Below the pieces are notes generated by a model. The model saw nothing but the letters and a program-made list of their open reading frames with translations. It was not told the origin of the DNA and did not search any database. Shown here in pieces: positions 5,018-24,252 of a stretch of DNA of 41,442 nt. Each line of letters starts with the position of its first letter. Position 1 is the stretch's first letter. The position numbers and the translations under genes were made by a program. The DNA lies in the sequence record DRR378314_69, one strand, 5' to 3'.

Positions 5018-5198
5018 AATAGAAACCCCAGTGTAAGTAGTTCAATCAAGTGTAGTCTAAGCAAGACAAAGTTAACCACCTGAAAAGCTGTGGGGCGAGA
5101 TTTTAGCGTAAATTAGGATAAAAAGCTTGTTTGCGGGGAATTTTTAATGGTTTGCAGCTAAAAACGAATCTAAACGTACAGCACAATGAGCCCTTTAT

Positions 5199-5269: not shown

Positions 5270-6565
5270 TTATGCTTTTTCAAGTAATGTACGTGCAACG
5301 GTACGCATACCAACGGTGGTTGCGCCAGCAGCCCATTGGCCAGTGCTACCCATATTAAACGCAGCCGCTAAGTCAATGTGCACCCAGCCTTTACCATCGT
5401 TTGGTACAAAACGCGATAAGAAACCTGCGGCATTTGATGCACCGCCATAACCGCCCCCTTTTTGCGCACGGCTGTTTGCGGTATCAGCATAAGGCGATGG
5501 GCAGTTTTGTTGGTGCCACTTTTCAAGAGGTAATGGCCAACCAGCTTCCATTTCTTGCTCTGCAAAGCCTTCAACTTCACGTACAAACTCTTTATCAAGA
5601 CCAAATAAGGCATTGTACTCTTGACCAACGGCAACCAGTGCAGCGCCTGTTAGAGTTGCAGCATTGATAATAAGCGGTGCACCTGTTTCACCTGCAGCCA
5701 TAAGACCATCGGCAAGCACTAAACGCCCTTCAGCATCGGTATTTACAATTTCAACTGTTGTGCCATTTTTATAAGTCAAAATGTCACCTAGCTTGTAAGC
5801 ATGGCCCGAAATCATGTTCTCTGCGCAGCATAAAAATAACTTGATACGTTTGTTGATACCGCGGCTAATAGCCAAGGCAAGACCTGCAGTAACCGTGGCT
5901 GCACCGCCCATATCGCACTTCATGCCCAGCATGCCTTCACTTGACTTAATTGAGTAACCACCTGAGTCAAACGTGATCCCCTTCCCCACTAATGCCGAAT
6001 CAACAGGTGCATTGTCGTCCCCAGTTGGGTTGTAATCTAATGCTAGTAATACTGGCGGGCGCTCACTGCCACGACCAACAGCATGAATACCAATCCATTG
6101 CTGCTCAAGTAACGCATCGCCTTTAATAATCTGGTAGCTGACATGCTCTGGCGCAAGTGATTGAATAAACTCAGCCGCTTTACCTGCAAGGCTTTCAGGG
6201 AAAATATCATCTGCTGTGCCGTTGATCATTTCACGCGCCCATGTGGCAGAGCGTAATAATGAATTTAGCTCTTGGCTGTCCGTTTTTGCATTTTGTGCAA
6301 ACTCAACGCCTGCTAACGTTTTCGGAGAAACAAAGCCTTGGTAAAACGCCCATTGTGTTTCAGTACACCAGCAGTCGCCAGCTAAAACTACATTTTTAAC
6401 ACCTTGATTGGCAATCGTACGCGCCGCTTTTTGCACGTTTTTTAAAGTCTCTTGCTCGGCTAGGTGAACTGTTGCACCGTGCTCATTAAATGAAAGTGTG
6501 GCGTTTTCGCCCCAATGAGATGCAGCCGCTTGTTCGCTTAATTGAACAACAAATTTTTCAGACAT
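5270..6565 (-). CDS. pepB: Aminopeptidase B (M17 leucyl aminopeptidase family)
   Basis: VGKGITFDSGG, MKCDMGGAA and NTDAEGRL motifs; PepB-type N-terminus (HWGENATLSF). Confidence 0.93.
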   Translation of the reverse strand: MSEKFVVQLSEQAAASHWGENATLSFNEHGATVHLAEQETLKNVQKAARTIANQGVKNVVLAGDCWCTETQWAFYQGFVSPKTLAGVEFAQNAKTDSQELNSLLRSATWAREMINGTADDIFPESLAGKAAEFIQSLAPEHVSYQIIKGDALLEQQWIGIHAVGRGSERPPVLLALDYNPTGDDNAPVDSALVGKGITFDSGGYSIKSSEGMLGMKCDMGGAATVTAGLALAISRGINKRIKLFLCCAENMISGHAYKLGDILTYKNGTTVEIVNTDAEGRLVLADGLMAAGETGAPLIINAATLTGAALVAVGQEYNALFGLDKEFVREVEGFAEQEMEAGWPLPLEKWHQQNCPSPYADTANSRAQKGGGYGGASNAAGFLSRFVPNDGKGWVHIDLAAAFNMGSTGQWAAGATTVGMRTVARTLLEKA

Positions 6566-16990: not shown

Positions 16991-17959
16991 TTATAAAAGA
17001 CCTAGTTTCTTAAGCTCTCTCATTGCCATCGCGCCTGACAATGGCACATAACCGTCTTTCTCTACAATCTTTTGACCGCTTTGAGAAAGTACCATTTTAA
17101 GGAACTCTGCATCAATTGGAGAAAGTGGTTTATTAGGGTGCTTGTTAATGTATACGTACAAGAAACGAGATAACGGGTATTTACCTGTTGCTACGTTATC
17201 CAGGGTAGCATCTACGAACTTGTTTCCTTTTTTAGCCAGTGGAACAGTACGAACACCCGATGTTTTGTAACCGATACCTGAGTAACCGATTGCATTTACA
17301 GAAGATGAAATTGACTGTACAACTGATGCAGAACCCGGTTGTTCATTTACATTGTTACGGAAATCACCTTTACATAAAGCCATTTTCTTAAAGTAACCAT
17401 ACGTCCCTGATACAGAGTTGCGACCATAAAGCTGAACATCTTTAGCTGCCCAATCACCAGTTAAGCCTACATCACTCCAGCGAGATACTTCATCTGATGC
17501 GCCACATTTACGCGTTGATGAGAAGATAGCGTCAACCTGGTCAATACGAAGGCCTTCAATTGGGTTATCTTTGTGAACAAATACAGCAAGAGCATCAATT
17601 GCAACACGCACTTCTGTTGGCTTGTAACCATAACGTTTTTCGAACGATTCAATTTCTTTTGACTTCATCTTACGGCTCATAGGGCCGAAATTTGCAGTAC
17701 CTTCAGTTAAAGCAGGTGGCGCTGTTGAAGAGCCCGCTGCTTGAATTTGAATATTTACATTAGGGTAAAAGCGCTTATATTCTTCAGCCCAAAAAGTCAT
17801 CATGTTGGCAAGAGTGTCAGAGCCCACTGATGAAAAGTTGCCTGAGATACCTGTTGTTTTCTCATACTCAGGAATCGTTTTATCTAAAGCTAGCGCTTGT
17901 GCAGATACTAATGTTGTAACAGCCACACCCATTGCGGCAACTAAACTTTTAAATTTCAT
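16991..17959 (-). CDS. pstS: Phosphate ABC transporter substrate-binding protein
   Basis: [32 protein letters not shown] and [10 protein letters not shown] motifs; signal peptide; downstream of phoBR. Confidence 0.93.
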
Positions 17960-18019
17960 AGGGGTTACTCCGATTTGTTCGTCCCATTTCCTAACTGCTG
18001 ACTACTTTAAAGCCATTAA

Positions 18020-18059
18020 ATGACAGTTAGATTACTTAATTGTTGCACTTTTATGACTT
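18020..18059 (-). promoter_or_regulatory. Tandem Pho boxes of the pstS promoter, overlapping the phoR 3' end
   Basis: Minus strand reads AAGTCATAAAA-GTGCAACAATT-AAGTAATCTAA-CTGTCAT (11-bp period), then 10 nt, then a TAAAGT -10 element. Confidence 0.75.
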
Positions 18060-19378
18060 TCGAGTGTTTTTGAATTACCACTCTCTACAAGCTTCTCTTT
18101 TGAGAACGAAAAAGAGAAACATGAGCCTTCACCAAGCTTACTTTTTATTTGTAAATGGCTATCATGGCGTGTAAGTACATGCTTTGTTATCGCCAAGCCT
18201 AAACCAGAACCACCCGTTGTTCTACTTCTGGCTTTATCTACACGGTAAAATCGCTCAGTGAGGCGGTTAATATGTTCTGGCGCGATACCATCACCATTAT
18301 CAACGACAGAAAAAACGGCTTGACTGTCTACCCGCTGCCAACTTACGGTTATTTTCCCGCCTGGTTTAGTGTAATGAATAGCATTAAACACTAAATTAGA
18401 AAACGCACTGCGCAGTTCATCCTCAGCGCCTTTAATATCAAGCTCTGCATCAACCTCAAATGTGAGCTCATGCCCTTTATCTTGATTAAGTGACTGGGCC
18501 TCAGTGCGAATATACGCCAATAACTGAGGGACATTGATTGCTTTATCATTATCTTGTCGTCTTACGCCTTCAATGCGTGACAATGATAATAATTGATTTA
18601 CCAAGCTATCCATACGCTTACACTGTTCTAACATAGTATTCTGCGCTTTATTCCACATAGCTGGCGGTGGCATCATATCGCCATCAAACATTTCTAAATA
18701 GCCTGTCACTACCGTCAAAGGTGTGCGTAACTCATGCGACACATTTGCAACAAAGTCTTTGCGCATTTGTTCTAGCTGCTTTAAACGAGTAACATCCCTC
18801 ACAACCACCATAAGCTGTGAGCTTGCGTATGGCATGACACGGTATTCCAGTACTTGCTCAACACTGTGTGTATTTTCAAGTTCAAGAGCTTCATCAAATT
18901 TTTCTTGGTGCATATATTTAGCAAATTTAGGATCACGAATTAGATTATCTAAACGTTGTCCATGATCAGCAGGCCACTGCAAACCAAGTATTTTTAACGC
19001 CAATTGATTACACCAAACAATACTAAGATCCCGCTGTAACACTACAACAGCATCAGGGACAGCTTCAGCACCATCACGAAAGCGGCGAATTAGATCTGCA
19101 AGTTCATTTCTCTTTTTGCGATTGCGATGCTGTAGATGATAAATTCCTTCAAAAACTTGTTCCCATGCACCTTCACCTTCCGGTGGATTAAAACTGCGTT
19201 GATTAAGTAGCCAATCACTGAGTCGGTAAAGTTGATGATAATGCCAAACTAATAATGAAAATGAGCCTAAAAATAAAAGCAAAAATGGCGCACCAATAAG
19301 CACGCCAATAAGTAGTAGGGGTAAAAAATAGATAAGCAAACGCTTAGCAAGCGCTTGCTTATTAACAACTCGATACAT
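18032..19378 (-). CDS. phoR: Phosphate regulon sensor histidine kinase
   Basis: PAS domain; H-box DFVANVSHELRTPL; RLTERFYRVDKARSRTTGGSGLGLAI. Confidence 0.97.
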   Translation of the reverse strand: MYRVVNKQALAKRLLIYFLPLLLIGVLIGAPFLLLFLGSFSLLVWHYHQLYRLSDWLLNQRSFNPPEGEGAWEQVFEGIYHLQHRNRKKRNELADLIRRFRDGAEAVPDAVVVLQRDLSIVWCNQLALKILGLQWPADHGQRLDNLIRDPKFAKYMHQEKFDEALELENTHSVEQVLEYRVMPYASSQLMVVVRDVTRLKQLEQMRKDFVANVSHELRTPLTVVTGYLEMFDGDMMPPPAMWNKAQNTMLEQCKRMDSLVNQLLSLSRIEGVRRQDNDKAINVPQLLAYIRTEAQSLNQDKGHELTFEVDAELDIKGAEDELRSAFSNLVFNAIHYTKPGGKITVSWQRVDSQAVFSVVDNGDGIAPEHINRLTERFYRVDKARSRTTGGSGLGLAITKHVLTRHDSHLQIKSKLGEGSCFSFSFSKEKLVESGNSKTLESHKSATIK

Positions 19379-19443
19379 AAACTCACTTTACCTTAGAAAA
19401 ATAAACTTAAGCTAATAAAGTCATTAACTTAACGTTTAAGATA

Positions 19444-20133
19444 CTATAGTTTACTCGAAAAACGGTAACCTGCGCCTCTCACCGTCTGAACCAGTCTATC
19501 ATGTCCCAGCGGAGCTATCGCTTTACGCAAACGACGAATATGCACGTCGACTGTTCTGTCTTCAACATAGACATTAGTCCCCCACACATTATCTAGCAAT
19601 TGTTCTCGGCTATATACGCGCTCAGGGTGAGTCATAAAGAAGTGCAATAATCTAAACTCTGTAGGCCCCATGTCCAGCTCGCTGCCATCAGAAGTTACGC
19701 GATGTGAAATTGGATCTAAGCGTAAACCGTGTACCTCAATCGCCTCTTCTAGCGACGTAGGTGAAACCCGACGGATTACCGCTTTAATGCGCGCCATCAG
19801 TTCTTTCGGTGAAAATGGTTTCGTTACATAATCGTCAGCACCGACTTCTAAGCCTCGGACTTTATCTTCCTCTTCGCCACGGGCTGTTAGCATGATGATA
19901 GGGATTTTGCGAGTATGCTCATTTTGTTTAAACTTTTTAGCAATTTGAATACCACTGCCACCTGGTAACATCCAATCCAGTAGAACCATGTCTGGGTATG
20001 GTTCGACCATGGCTGCAATAGCAGAATCGTAATCTTCGGCCTCAATTGCTTGAAATCCATTTTGTTCTAATACAAAAACTAACATTTCCCTAATAGGCGC
20101 TTCGTCATCGACGACAAGTACTTTACGTGACAT
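19444..20133 (-). CDS. phoB: Phosphate regulon response regulator
   Basis: [11 protein letters not shown] receiver; [25 protein letters not shown]...[13 protein letters not shown]. Confidence 0.98.
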
Positions 20134-20168
20134 TCCAATTCTTCTCTTTCGTTATCGAACTTGTTTTC

Positions 20169-20202
20169 ATTATTATGACTAAGTATGACATTTTTATGAA
20201 AG
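20169..20202 (-). promoter_or_regulatory. Pho box and -10 element of the autoregulated phoB promoter
   Basis: Minus strand CTTTCATAAAAATGTCAT (20202-20185), then 10 nt, then AATAAT; same geometry as the E. coli phoB promoter. Confidence 0.8.
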
Positions 20203-20409
20203 TGTAACGTGTAAATTAAAATGAGCGAAAAAAAAACACAAACAACGCAAAAAAAGTATTAAAACTCATCAATTAGACTTGGTTCAAGCAACCTTTTCTT
20301 ACTTTACTGCAAATGAAGTAGATCAGTAACCAATATAATTAATCTTCAGCTATTAGCTTTTTAGTTTTAAAAATAGCCTCAGCCTATTCCAATGTAAAAA
20401 TAAGTTATG

Positions 20410-20655
20410 GATCAAATTCATACCAAGTAAACAAATTCGGATCATGCTTATACTAACTAACTTGGATCTGGGATCATGATTGTACTAACACAAGAATGTA
20501 AGGCGTTGATCATTTGTACAAACGATACAATTTACGCTGGATTTTCAAACAAAAAACACATATTAGATCGTGATCCTTAGTAAAAGATTGATCTCAAGAA
20601 TAAAGCGTTGGTAAAAACCCGATCTTTTCCTTTATTAGTTAGTAAGGGAATGATC
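20410..20655. repeat. GATC-rich, helically phased array of six 18-bp GATC-N7-TACYAAS repeats (3 forward, 3 reverse)
   Basis: Forward copies at 20410-20427, 20440-20457 and 20472-20489; reverse copies at 20576-20593, 20607-20624 and 20638-20655. Ten GATC sites in 246 bp, plus one at 20321. Confidence 0.85.
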
Positions 20656-20674
20656 TTTCTTAATTGTGCGGGCA

Positions 20675-20708
20675 TAAAAAAAGCCAGCTCTTTGCAGATA
20701 CTGGCTTT
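20675..20708 (-). terminator. Terminator of epd-pgk-fba
   Basis: AAAGCCAG...CTGGCTTT stem with a U-tract on the minus strand, just after the fba stop. Confidence 0.75.
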
Positions 20709-20725
20709 ATTTTCAATCTATTAAG

Positions 20726-21790
20726 TTACTTAACTTGTGGATCTAACTCACCAGATAAGTATTTAAGATGCATTTCATCAAGTGAGATTGGCTTGATCTT
20801 ACTTGCTTGACCCGCAGTGCCAAACGCTTCATAGCGCGCTACACAGATCTCAGTCATTGCTTTCGTTGCTTCAGCAAGGTATTTTCGTGGATCAAAGTTT
20901 GATGGGTTTAGTGCTAAGTGACGACGAATCGCACCTGTTGATGCTAAACGTAAATCTGTATCAATGTTTACTTTACGAACACCAAATTTAATACCTTCAA
21001 CGATCTGCTCAACTGGAACACCATACGTTTCAGGGATTTCACCACCATATTGATTGATAATTTCAAGCCACTCTTGTGGTACTGATGACGAACCATGCAT
21101 TACAAGGTGAGTATTAGGAATACGTGCATGTATCGCTTTAATACGATCGATTGCTAAGATGTCATCCGTTGGTGGGCGTGTAAATTTATAAGCTCCGTGA
21201 GAAGTACCACAGGCAATTGCAAGCGCATCACAGTGAGTTTTGCTAACAAAGTCAGCGGCTTCTTCTGGATCTGTTAGCATTTGATCTGTAGTTAATTTAC
21301 CTTCAGCACCAACACCGTCTTCCTCACCAGCTTCGCCAGTTTCAAGAGAACCTAAAACACCTAACTCGCCTTCAACCGATACACCGCATGAATGAGCAAG
21401 CTCAACTGTTTTACGTGTTACATCAACATTATACTCATAGCTTGAAGGTGTTTTCCCATCAGTCATTAATGAGCCATCCATCATTACAGATGAAAAACCT
21501 AACTGGATTGAACGCTGACAAACGCCAGGTGAAGTACCGTGATCCTGATGCATAACCACTGGGATGTGTGGCCATTCTTCGATGGCAGCTAAAATCATAT
21601 GACGAATAAATGGGGCGCCAGCATAGGCACGAGCACCGGCTGAACCTTGCACAATTACAGGGCTATTTGTTTTATCAGCCGCCATCATAATAGCGCGGAT
21701 TTGCTCTTGGTTATTAACGTTAAAAGCTGGCACGCCGTAACCATTTTCAGCTGCATGATCAAGAAGTTGTCGCATACTGATTAAAGCCAT
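20726..21790 (-). CDS. fba: Fructose-bisphosphate aldolase class II (type B)
   Basis: [36 protein letters not shown] and KVNIDTDLR motifs. Confidence 0.97.
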
Positions 21791-21804
21791 TGGGTATTCT
21801 CCAA

Positions 21805-21989
21805 ATTATCGATAGCTGCGTAAACGCAACACTACCTAGTCGAACGGAATAGTTTAATTCGATGCATTCACTGCATCACGACAGTCTTGGCACTTGCCAA
21901 ACCTACCGCCAACACAAACCAGTAATTAAATAAGGGTGAGAGGTATTTAATTAATGGTGTTAGCCGGTGTAAGTAAATTTACTTACACC
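21805..21989 (-). other. Structured intercistronic RNA (5-6 consecutive hairpins) between pgk and fba
   Basis: Perfect 24-bp palindrome GGTGTAAGTAAATTTACTTACACC (21966-21989) plus further stems whose mismatches are G-U pairs on the minus (mRNA) strand. Confidence 0.65.
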
Positions 21990-22005
21990 AACAAGCATGC
22001 TCGTT

Positions 22006-23181
22006 TTATTTAGCACGCTCTTCTAGCATAGCAACAGCTGGCAATTTTTTCCCTTCTAAAAATTCAAGGAAAGCACCGCCACCGGTTGAAATGTATGAAA
22101 CTTTATCGCCAATACCGTATTTATCAATCGCTGCTAGCGTATCGCCGCCACCAGCAATTGAGAACGCGTTTGAATCAGCAATCGCTTGTGCGATTGCACG
22201 CGTGCCATTACCAAACTGATCAAATTCGAACACCCCAACAGGGCCATTCCAAACAACAGTGCCAGCGTTGGCAATAATTTTAGCTAATTTACTCGCTGTA
22301 TCCGGGCCAATATCAAAAATCATATCATCACTGGTTACTTCACTAACATCTTTTAATGTTGCAACCGTTGATTCTGAAAATTCATTACCCACAACAACGT
22401 CGGTAGGCACTGGTATTTCACCATTGTTACTTTTAGCTGCTGCGCATAATTTATTTGCTTCATCTATCAAATCAGCTTCATAAAGTGATTTACCTACAGG
22501 ATGACCTGCCGCAGCTATGAAAGTATTTGCAATACCGCCACCAGTGACTAGCTGATCAACAATCGTTGAAAGTGAGTCAAGTACTGTTAATTTGGTTGAT
22601 ACTTTAGAACCACCAACAATAGCAACAAGCGGACGTGCTGGGTTATCAAGCGCTTTACCAAGGGCTTCTAGCTCTGCTGCCAATAAAGGGCCCGCACACG
22701 CAACGTCGGCAAATAAACCAACGCCATGGGTTGAAGCTTGTGCACGGTGAGCAGTACCAAAAGCGTCCATTACGTACACATCACATAGTGCAGCAAGCTT
22801 TTTAGATAATGCCTCGTCGTTTTTCTTTTCGCCAACATTAAAGCGTACGTTTTCAAACACAACCACTTCATTATCAGCGATTTCAACACCATCTAGGTAG
22901 TCTTTTTCAAGGCGTACTGTTTGTTCTAGTGCCTCATTTAAATAATCAACAACTGGAGCCAATGAAAACTCTTCGTTGTATTCCCCTTCCGTAGGACGGC
23001 CAAGATGTGACATCACCATTACTTTTGCGCCTTTTTCAAGGGCTAGTTTGATACTTGGTAATGCTGCACGAATACGTGCATCTGAGGTCACTTTACCTGC
23101 TTTGACTGGTACATTTAAATCTTCACGAATTAAAACGCGTTTGCCGTTTAAATCTAAATCTACCATATTAATGACCGACAT
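22006..23181 (-). CDS. pgk: Phosphoglycerate kinase
   Basis: [29 protein letters not shown] and [11 protein letters not shown] motifs. Confidence 0.98.
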
Positions 23182-23235
23182 GGACTTCTCCTTAGTTAAC
23201 GATACTGACTTGAATAAAAATTCTTAATTATATTT

Positions 23236-24252
23236 CTAGTTTTCTGCAACCATCATACACCGTGCGGTGTCGATCATGCGGTTGGCAAATCCCCATTCAT
23301 TATCACACCAGACTAATAACTTTATCAGTCGTTTATGACTAACTCGTGTCTGCGTGCCATCAATAATACATGAGTGTGCGTCATGGTTAAAATCAACAGA
23401 GACCAATGGCTCCTCTGTATAACTTAAAATACCTTCTAATCTATCTCTCGCAGCCGCTTTTAAAGCTTTATTTACTGTAACTAAATCTACGTCTGTATTG
23501 ACTGTGACGCTCAAATCCATCGCCGTAACATTGATAGTAGGCACTCGCACAGCGATGGCTTCAAATCGGCCATGAAATTTGGGTAATATCCGCTCAATAC
23601 CGCGTGCTAACTTTGTGTCTACCGGAATAATTGATTGGCTTGCTGCACGAGTACGGCGTAAATCATGATGATAAGCATCAATGACTTGCTGATCATTCAT
23701 CGAGGCATGAATAGTGGTGATTGCACCCGATTCAATTTCAAATGCATCATCAAGCACTTTAATAACAGGTACAATACAGTTTGTTGTACATGAGCCGTTA
23801 GATACTATTGTGTGCGCAGCGGTTAATTCATCGTCATTGATACCATAAACGATAGTGGCATCTACATCAGCATCCGCAGGTTGAGAAAATAATACCTTTT
23901 TTGCACCCGCATTTAAGTGAAGTTGTGCATGTTCACGAGAATGAAACACCCCTGTGCACTCTAGTACCACATCGATATCAAGTACCTGCCAAGGAAGTTC
24001 ACACGGATTTTCTTCGCAAAATAATGCAATTGAATCGCCGGCAACATTGATACAATCTTCACCGAGTGTAACAGGAAATTTGAAACGTCCATGAGACGTA
24101 TCATATTTAAGGAGGTGAGCGATCCCTTTAGGATCCGCTAATTCATTAATAGCAACAATTTTGATCTCATCGCTTAGCCCTGATTCATACAGCGCTCGGA
24201 CGATATTTCGACCAATTCGACCAAAACCATTAATTGCAAGTTTGATTGCCAT
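23236..24252 (-). CDS. epd: D-erythrose-4-phosphate dehydrogenase
   Basis: GAPDH-family fold ([14 protein letters not shown]) with Epd-specific [17 protein letters not shown] and [12 protein letters not shown]; upstream of pgk. Confidence 0.96.

Follow-up and report, generated by a model that had tools for sequence, protein, structure and literature searches.

The 592-bp spacer between fba and phoB in sequence record DRR378314_69 (a 41,442-bp stretch of DNA that was analysed whole and is called the window below) carries an array of repeats at 20410-20655, and the same repeat is clustered around the replication origin (ori2) of the second replicon, or chromid, of Pseudoalteromonas genomes, beside the gene for the chromid initiator RepA. 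The array is a real and strongly conserved feature. Judged from its sequence, it is very probably a RepA-binding iteron array, and some role in controlling chromid replication is probable; that these are main-chromosome iterons for RepA which couple the two replicons is the reading we favour, with some reserve. Among the candidates now available for the site that couples the two Pseudoalteromonas replicons, we consider the array the best.

The timing of second-chromosome replication is known in mechanistic detail mainly for Vibrio, through the site crtS, and methylation-based control has been reported for Agrobacterium. The chromosomes of Pseudoalteromonas finish replication together, by a mechanism that Xie et al. 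2021 (PMC7858055) state to be unknown, and a 2026 Nat Commun survey (PMC13342612) speaks of no known timer for Pseudoalteromonas, names the finding of timers in other lineages as a goal and reports that Hi-C for strain TAC125 failed quality control. Our searches of the literature on Pseudoalteromonas with crtS, or with iterons and chromid, found no description of a chromosome-1 array. The array presents a concrete 250-bp target, deletable or movable, for the question of inter-replicon timing; if the coupling reading is true, inter-replicon checkpoints have evolved more than once, and ordinary plasmid iterons are usable on another replicon as a clock.

Architecture of the array

The array is composed of six exact copies of the 18-mer GATC-N7-TACYAAS, all within 20410-20655 and none elsewhere in the window. 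The chance expectation for this pattern in the window is 0.06, and none of 100 shuffles gave more than 1 match; because the pattern was taken from the window copies themselves, the 0.06 figure is post hoc, and the genome scans described below are the independent test. Three copies lie on the plus strand: F1 (20410..20427, GATCAAATTCATACCAAG), a repeat of the chromid RepA type, F2 (20440..20457), starting 30 bp after F1, and F3 (20472..20489), 32 bp after F2. The other three, R1 (20576..20593), R2 (20607..20624) and R3 (20638..20655), lie on the minus strand at start-to-start spacings of 31 and 31 bp, and the two triads converge. All six match the pattern exactly and have core columns that are conserved in a 12-species alignment. 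A degenerate reverse copy with three mismatches in its 3' box (20494..20511, minus strand) retains TAAG...TGAT columns that are invariant in 12/12 species, while the central spacer between the triads (20512..20575), with extra GATCs at 20566 and 20572, is poorly conserved across species. Repetition of the iteron type, with several copies of an asymmetric 17-22-bp unit, is present here as the six exact 18-mers and the one degenerate copy. GATC occurs 11 times in 335 bp (20321 to 20652), about 13 times the window average of about 1/414 bp (100 per window).

An earlier note on this DNA had described the six 18-mers, three in each orientation, the 11 GATC positions, the 30/32 and 31/31 bp spacings of converging triads and a weaker reverse copy starting at 20511, and all of these stand. 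Its claim that no rep or par gene and no perfect DnaA box lies nearby also agrees with our scans, which found no rep or par gene among six open reading frames (ORFs) around the spacer (16991-24252) and, within the spacer, no DnaA-box-like sequence at one mismatch or fewer. The spacer has no match to the IHF consensus, and its central part (20512..20575) shows no marked A+T peak. The array is without an unwinding element or a DnaA box and is therefore not an origin.

The array's iterons point both ways, and it lacks a DnaA box, an IHF site and an A+T-rich unwinding element. This build resembles that of plasmid copy-control arrays, and it speaks for the main rival to a coupling site, in which the chromosome-1 iterons are a purely negative copy-control array that acts only as a sink or handcuffing partner capping chromid copy number, so that fork passage times nothing. 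P1 incA, F incC and E. coli datA would be sinks of a comparable kind. The likeness to incA and incC lies in iterons placed outside the origin in both orientations, with no unwinding element, and expected to titrate or handcuff the initiator; unlike the chromosome-1 array, which sits on a different replicon and so has its replication time set by another origin, those arrays act in cis on their own plasmid. We hold this rival to be unlikely, on grounds that are given below.

The same repeat at the chromid origin

The ori2 and RepA of the Pseudoalteromonas chromid are reported to have been described before (Medigue 2005). Genome-wide tests were run on the genome nearest to the window (G001, which has 78% of sampled words in common with it) and on other species. 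GATC-N7-TACYAAS has 26 matches in G001 and its reversed-pattern control has 1. Six of the 26 lie at the homologous fba-phoB locus, one is isolated, and 19 are found on a single 543-kb chromid contig, where the gene order around ori2 is rmuC, SNF2 helicase, parB2, parA2, repA (the 410-amino-acid gene) and tus. Four of the chromid iterons are positioned between the divergent parA2 and repA genes and four directly past the parB2 stop codon, and the parA2-repA spacer contains DnaA-box-like sequences and a palindromic GATC cluster besides its iterons. The same gene set was placed around ori2 by Xie et al. 2021 (PMC7858055), who report by experiment that repA and ori2 form the minimal replicon. The earlier note had proposed a whole-genome scan in which a motif cluster at the chromid origin, next to repA/parAB, would strongly support its idea, and the scan bears this out; eight copies flank parB2-parA2 beside repA and tus in G001, and the cluster recurs in every complete genome inspected.

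The iteron consensus was refined to RGATCAnnwTTTTACTAAS, 18-19 bp in length. Iterons upstream of repA at -72+, -110-, -151-, -392+ and -475+ are found again in the majority of the 24 full-length ori2 loci taken from complete genomes, with positions shifted or missing in the large-chromid lineages. The repeat lies at the origin beside its cognate rep in G001 and in these 24 loci. The chromid copies are found on the parAB side of ori2, which is replicated first, and not in the ori2-dif2 stretch. The chromosome-1 array has the repeat, its helical phasing and the presumed binding protein in common with ori2, and differs in lying on the other replicon without repA, DnaA-box-like sequences or a palindromic GATC cluster.

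A 72-nt alignment at 76% identity joins the F1-F2 stretch (window 20398-20464) to the phased iteron triad downstream of parB2 in G001. An alignment of this kind would be expected if the array were a functionless relic of an ancestral plasmid origin integrated into chromosome 1. We consider this very unlikely, given that the array is retained in 36/36 complete genomes across deep clades of the genus, that 45/54 core columns are invariant in an otherwise diverged sequence, and that spacing shifts only in steps of about one helical turn (see below).

Three further observations concern the chromid copies. The region downstream of parB2 in G001 (G001:C40:339400-339695) holds a perfect DnaA box and four iteron copies, three of which form a phased direct triad with spacings of 32 and 33 bp, and could be a second origin-like or control module. 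The equivalent of this array in some large-chromid species is a tandem array of 7-8 copies that sits 45-60 kb from repA. Another group of 6-8 chromid-type iterons, spaced at 140-950 bp and conserved, is situated in and between ordinary genes, namely the PepSY_TM, DUF3325, lipocalin and YaiI genes, 27-130 kb from ori2 depending on the genome and with positions conserved between species (G001:C40:212362-215700, G010:C2:52673-55733, G047:C2:515588-519212 and G039:C1:54655-57701).

RepA as the candidate binding protein

No Pfam or NCBIfam family shows detectable similarity in sequence to RepA (410 amino acids). A structure model was built on a 23-sequence alignment (predicted local distance difference test score, pLDDT, 73.7), and a Foldseek search with this model gave RctB domains 2-3 as the best match (E 3e-8), followed by RepE and pi (E ~1e-3) and by Rep-iteron complexes. 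RctB, RepE and pi are winged-helix iteron-binding initiators, and the model predicts for RepA the tandem winged-helix arrangement expected of a cognate initiator, with template modelling (TM) scores of only 0.3-0.5.

Plasmids of the genus tie the repeat class to the initiator; the Reps of the four plasmids concerned are about 50% identical to the RepA of the chromid. The 144-kb plasmid of G010 encodes a RepA homologue that is 53% identical to the chromid RepA, and 10 exact direct repeats GATC-N6-CCTCTAT lie upstream of its rep gene and nowhere else in G010. Three further Pseudoalteromonas plasmids encode Reps that are 57-61% identical to the G010 plasmid Rep and have 12-20 direct repeats upstream of rep. 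On all four plasmids the repeats begin with an AGATC lead and a T-rich stretch, and each plasmid has its own 3' box behind the common lead, so that the repeat co-varies with the Rep. The plasmid repeats with Rep-specific 3' boxes therefore indicate that the motif class follows the initiator and not ParB. The plasmid homologues were drawn from a plasmid collection; a scan of genome contigs with the RepA alignment gave only chromid RepAs among the best 80 loci. The earlier note's reading of the array as main-chromosome sites for the chromid initiator gains support from the motif shared with ori2 and from this Rep linkage.

Two other proteins encoded beside ori2, ParB2 and Tus, were considered as binding partners. 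ParA2/ParB2 is of type Ia and ParB2 is SopB-like, and the array would in that case be a centromere-like ParB2 site through which a locus of chromosome 1 is tied to the partition complex of the chromid. A single parS2 site is reported from V. cholerae chromosome 1. In keeping with a centromere are the type Ia assignment, the presence of one chromid array at the stop codon of parB2 and of another in the promoter region of parA2, and the dispersal of sites, some of them in genes, across 50-130 kb to the parAB side of ori2. The 18-mer, however, is asymmetric, whereas a parS site would be expected to be palindromic or linked to ParB, and the motif class is found upstream of rep on four plasmids with a Rep-specific 3' box, none of which is among the Pseudoalteromonas ParB2 matches listed, although weak matches may be missing there; the matches listed comprise 15 records, namely 14 chromids and one P. 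rubra plasmid. ParB2 itself (62-79% identity, 5 genomes) varies far more than the motif, compared with 84-99% for RepA across the genus (36 complete genomes), and initiator sites within genes are known for RctB (PMC11711613). On balance we mostly reject the ParB2 reading and regard it as improbable. The 84-99% identity of RepA across the genus fits a nearly invariant binding site.

Fba varies to a similar extent (84-95% across the complete genomes), and for an initiator derived from a plasmid it is unusual that the conservation of RepA comes near that of a glycolytic enzyme and far exceeds that of ParB2. An in-frame stop is present in two or three of the repA matches (G134, G002, G090). A second RepA paralogue, 28% identical, is encoded on the G020 chromid (G020:C2:15739-16740), 136 kb from the main repA, and no chromid-type iterons were found within 4 kb of it. 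Chromid-type iterons were sought on the four plasmids and at this paralogue locus, and were found on the P. carrageenovora 144-kb plasmid alone (NZ_CP027525; G010:C3:11000-19000), which has three exact GATC-N7-TACTAAG copies at 5025-5042, 5276-5293 and 5529-5546 of that stretch. They are located in a 3.5-kb region downstream of rep in which the only ORFs of at least 70 amino acids are two (79 and 70 amino acids), and the plasmid also holds its own 10+ iterons upstream of rep. The three copies suggest possible cross-talk with the chromid initiator.

Conservation of the array across the genus

All of the 61 Pseudoalteromonas genomes scanned have 18-41 motif matches, against 0-9 in controls. With a stricter pattern in a family sample, 3/3 Pseudoalteromonas genomes gave 21-24 matches, and 88 genomes of 58 other genera were at background, with 0-3 matches and no clusters. 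The complete genomes, defined as those with four contigs or fewer, number 36 of the 140 genus genomes, and fba and repA were each found in 36/36. The array adjoins fba in every one of these, within 1.2 kb of the fba stop codon in 33/36 and 1.5-2 kb further away in the other three. The array has the distribution of a crtS-type site, a non-coding main-chromosome site conserved wherever the chromid occurs.

Among relatives the array varies from 3 to 10 copies at one mismatch or fewer. The convergent layout, with forward copies toward phoB and reverse copies toward fba, is retained in most genomes, and a few loci have stray or interleaved copies. Spacings between neighbouring copies (20-22, 30-32, 40-42, 52-53, 62, 83 and 114 bp) are near multiples of ~10.4 bp; the exceptions are a few wider gaps that separate outlying copies. 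In the 12-species alignment, which is partly motif-anchored and in which the motif-core columns were defined from the window, 45/54 core columns are invariant compared with 21/202 elsewhere.

This pattern also bears on a Dam/SeqA or transcription-factor switch acting on phoBR expression with no tie to the chromid. The array is GATC-dense and lies 280-520 bp upstream of phoB, where such a switch might be placed, but conservation covers the full 18-mer and not GATC alone, and the array is separated from fba by 1.5-2 kb in the three genomes noted above. The other exact chromosome-1 copies are scattered singles (four in G010), whereas the chromid copies are many and clustered around ori2. We give hardly any credence to the phoBR switch; both alternatives raised in the earlier note, a SeqA/Dam switch over phoBR and a site for an unknown DNA-organising protein, are disfavoured because the motif is tied to ori2 and to homologues of Rep. 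Genes of the Dam family and SeqA are present in 3/3 genomes tested, a finding that is permissive only for methylation control.

Position on chromosome 1 and replication timing

Replication distances were measured to the dif sites of the two replicons. A first dif pattern located dif1 in 2/5 genomes, and a shorter pattern was used for the final placement, which yielded a timing set of 32/36 complete genomes; those dropped were G134 (no match), G025 (no dif1 match), G136, where dif1 was matched with 1 mismatch only, and G023, whose chromosome 1 is divided among contigs. The dif1 site sits opposite dnaA. The dif2 site lies 14-156 kb beyond repA/tus in 29/32 genomes and 412, 778 and 834 kb away in the other three, which agrees with the one-way and two-way chromid replication reported by Xie et al. 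2021 (PMC7858055).

The array is positioned between 0.25 and 0.45 of the way along the ori1-dif1 arm, 434-947 kb away from dnaA. In 32/32 genomes its distance to dif1 is greater than the longest ori2-dif2 arc, by 139-695 kb (mean 301, standard deviation 112 kb), and the array thus precedes the latest ori2 firing point compatible with a joint finish in all of them; the 695-kb delay is doubtful, as the dif1 candidate of G054 gives very unequal arms. Replication before ori2 must fire is what a crtS-type site would require, and this test discriminates weakly. The array-to-dif1 distance correlates with chromid replication length (r 0.83, slope 0.85), the relation that was used for crtS by Kemter et al. 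2018 (PMC5854411; Fig 6 logic).

Several properties of the same data make the positional fit weak evidence for a timing role of the array. Arm (replichore) length alone gives r 0.77 with chromid replication length; a hypothetical locus placed at 37% of every arm has a delay spread of 122 kb, compared with 112 kb for the array; the distance from the array to ori1 has no correlation with chromid size (r about 0); and the genomes of one genus are not independent data points. Position as proof of a timer was rejected, since the r of 0.83 is mostly covariation of chromosome sizes. When chromid replication length is regressed on arm length, the array-ori1 distance contributes modestly (coefficient -0.65, p 0.004, no phylogeny correction). 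The position is compatible with a timer and is no proof of one.

These results also bear on the negative copy-control sink introduced above, for which it counts that the positional fit barely beats a fixed-fraction locus, and that large lineage-associated replicons are held at chromosome-like copy number (PMC13342612). Against the sink stand the location of the array ahead of the required ori2 firing point in every genome of the timing set, the regression term for ori1 distance, which has the direction predicted for a timer, and synchronous termination in the genus, which needs a cue from chromosome-1 progress (PMC7858055). Whether the array is specifically a replication-timed positive trigger is, in our estimate, a little short of an even call.

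The position of the array further argues against Tus as its ligand, in which case the iterons would be Ter sites forming a compact fork barrier. The tus gene adjoins repA on the chromid, the 3' box is loosely like the E. coli Ter core, and Ter sites are not known in the genus according to Xie et al. (PMC7858055). A fork trap would however be expected at the terminus, where the array is never found; with copies in both orientations, one triad would block the normal fork; and the chromid sites are on the replicated side of ori2 and not between ori2 and dif2. The Tus/Ter reading was rejected on position and orientation, and we regard it as extremely unlikely.

Only three of the 32 genomes, G002, G090 and G020 (chromids of 1.32-1.62 Mb), have a chromid longer than the array-to-dif1 distance, and these are exactly the three with a displaced dif2 (412-834 kb from ori2), meaning two-way replication; they represent about two independent events. 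If the coupling reading is true, the roughly fixed position of the array, about 1.0-1.7 Mb from dif1, would explain the switch of larger chromids from one-way to two-way replication and so help to account for the bidirectional replication of large chromids in Pseudoalteromonas.

Proposed mechanism of coupling

In the proposed mechanism a RepA monomer would bind each 18-19-bp site, its two winged-helix domains contacting the RGATCA box and, one turn of the helix further on, the TACTAAS box, and the 21/31/42-bp phasing would set all bound proteins on one face of the DNA. The array would hold RepA, or handcuff the ori2 iterons, and so keep ori2 silent. Passage of the chromosome-1 fork would strip the RepA complex and leave every GATC of the array hemimethylated, with rebinding delayed. 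Hemimethylated GATCs spaced 31 bp apart on one face are good SeqA substrates, and those of the array would be an ideal SeqA target in that state. RepA or ori2 would then be released, and the chromid would fire once per chromosome-1 cycle, early enough for a joint finish. We put forward, as a possibility held tentatively, that the array is a replication checkpoint that evolved independently of Vibrio crtS, in the form of a methylation-gated iteron sink or handcuff which is broken by fork passage and SeqA sequestration.

Further points stand beside the positional ones on the opposing side. We infer the mechanism as a whole, so that RepA binding, dependence on methylation and triggering or titration are all predictions, and the chromid evidence comes from related genomes. 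Additional plasmid iterons supplied in trans usually have an inhibitory effect on replication and do not trigger it. The chromid array next to the parB2 stop codon occupies the position where type Ia centromeres are usually found, and the iterons within ordinary genes 50-130 kb from ori2 mean that a role in replication need not be assumed for every copy. Niault 2025 (PMC11711613) reports little or no effect on chromosome 2 copy number for the iteron-like RctB sites of V. cholerae chromosome 1 and describes the real Vibrio trigger, crtS, as not iteron-like.

Comparison with known systems

The closest functional parallel is the crtS/RctB checkpoint of Vibrio cholerae (Val 2016; Kemter 2018, PMC5854411). 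Both sites are non-coding, lie on the main chromosome and are related to the chromid initiator; both are part-way down one replichore and are replicated before ori2 must fire for a joint finish; and the relation of distance to ter1 with chromid replication length behaves as in the Kemter 2018 logic. The predicted fold of RepA is, in the model, closest to RctB domains 2-3. In contrast, crtS is unlike iterons or 39-mers, whereas the Pseudoalteromonas site is built of 3-10 true iterons that all contain a GATC, and RctB binds crtS independently of methylation, according to the title of PMC6212839. RepA also differs from the Vibrio initiator in lacking detectable Pfam or NCBIfam similarity, and the Pseudoalteromonas chromid mostly replicates one way. 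Xie et al. 2021 (PMC7858055) report no crtS-like sequence on chromosome 1 of Pseudoalteromonas, and on that report the array is not a member of the crtS family by sequence.

The V. cholerae chromosome-1 iteron-like RctB sites (PMC11711613) are likewise GATC-centred initiator sites on the main chromosome, and some are also in genes, but they are single and have little effect, whereas the Pseudoalteromonas copies form a phased array of two converging groups with genus-wide conservation.

E. coli datA and DARS are, like the array, chromosomal clusters of initiator sites whose position sets their time of action, and they differ in acting on DnaA and on the origin of their own chromosome.

Flanking genes and the fba terminator

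The spacer extends from the fba stop codon (20726) to the phoB start (20133), both genes being on the minus strand. The upstream flank, fba (20726..21790, Pfam F_bP_aldolase), encodes a class II aldolase and serves as the synteny anchor across the genus, and the downstream flank, phoB (19444..20133, Pfam Response_reg and Trans_reg_C), encodes a response regulator. A hairpin followed by a T-run just past the fba stop codon (20676..20712, minus strand) is an inverted repeat conserved in the 12-species alignment; it is likely the fba terminator and forms the right boundary of the array. A simple terminator scan did not call this hairpin because its loop is 13 nt long. An Rfam search of 19000-22000 (E up to 1) returned nothing above threshold, the sole match being a sub-threshold Thr_leader at 20674-20767 on the minus strand (25 bits, where the gathering score is 55; E 0.089), which overlaps the terminator hairpin and was taken as a chance match, so that no RNA reading is supported. 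Beyond the two flanking genes, the neighbourhood of the spacer includes phoR, a PstS-like gene, pgk and a GAPDH-type gene.

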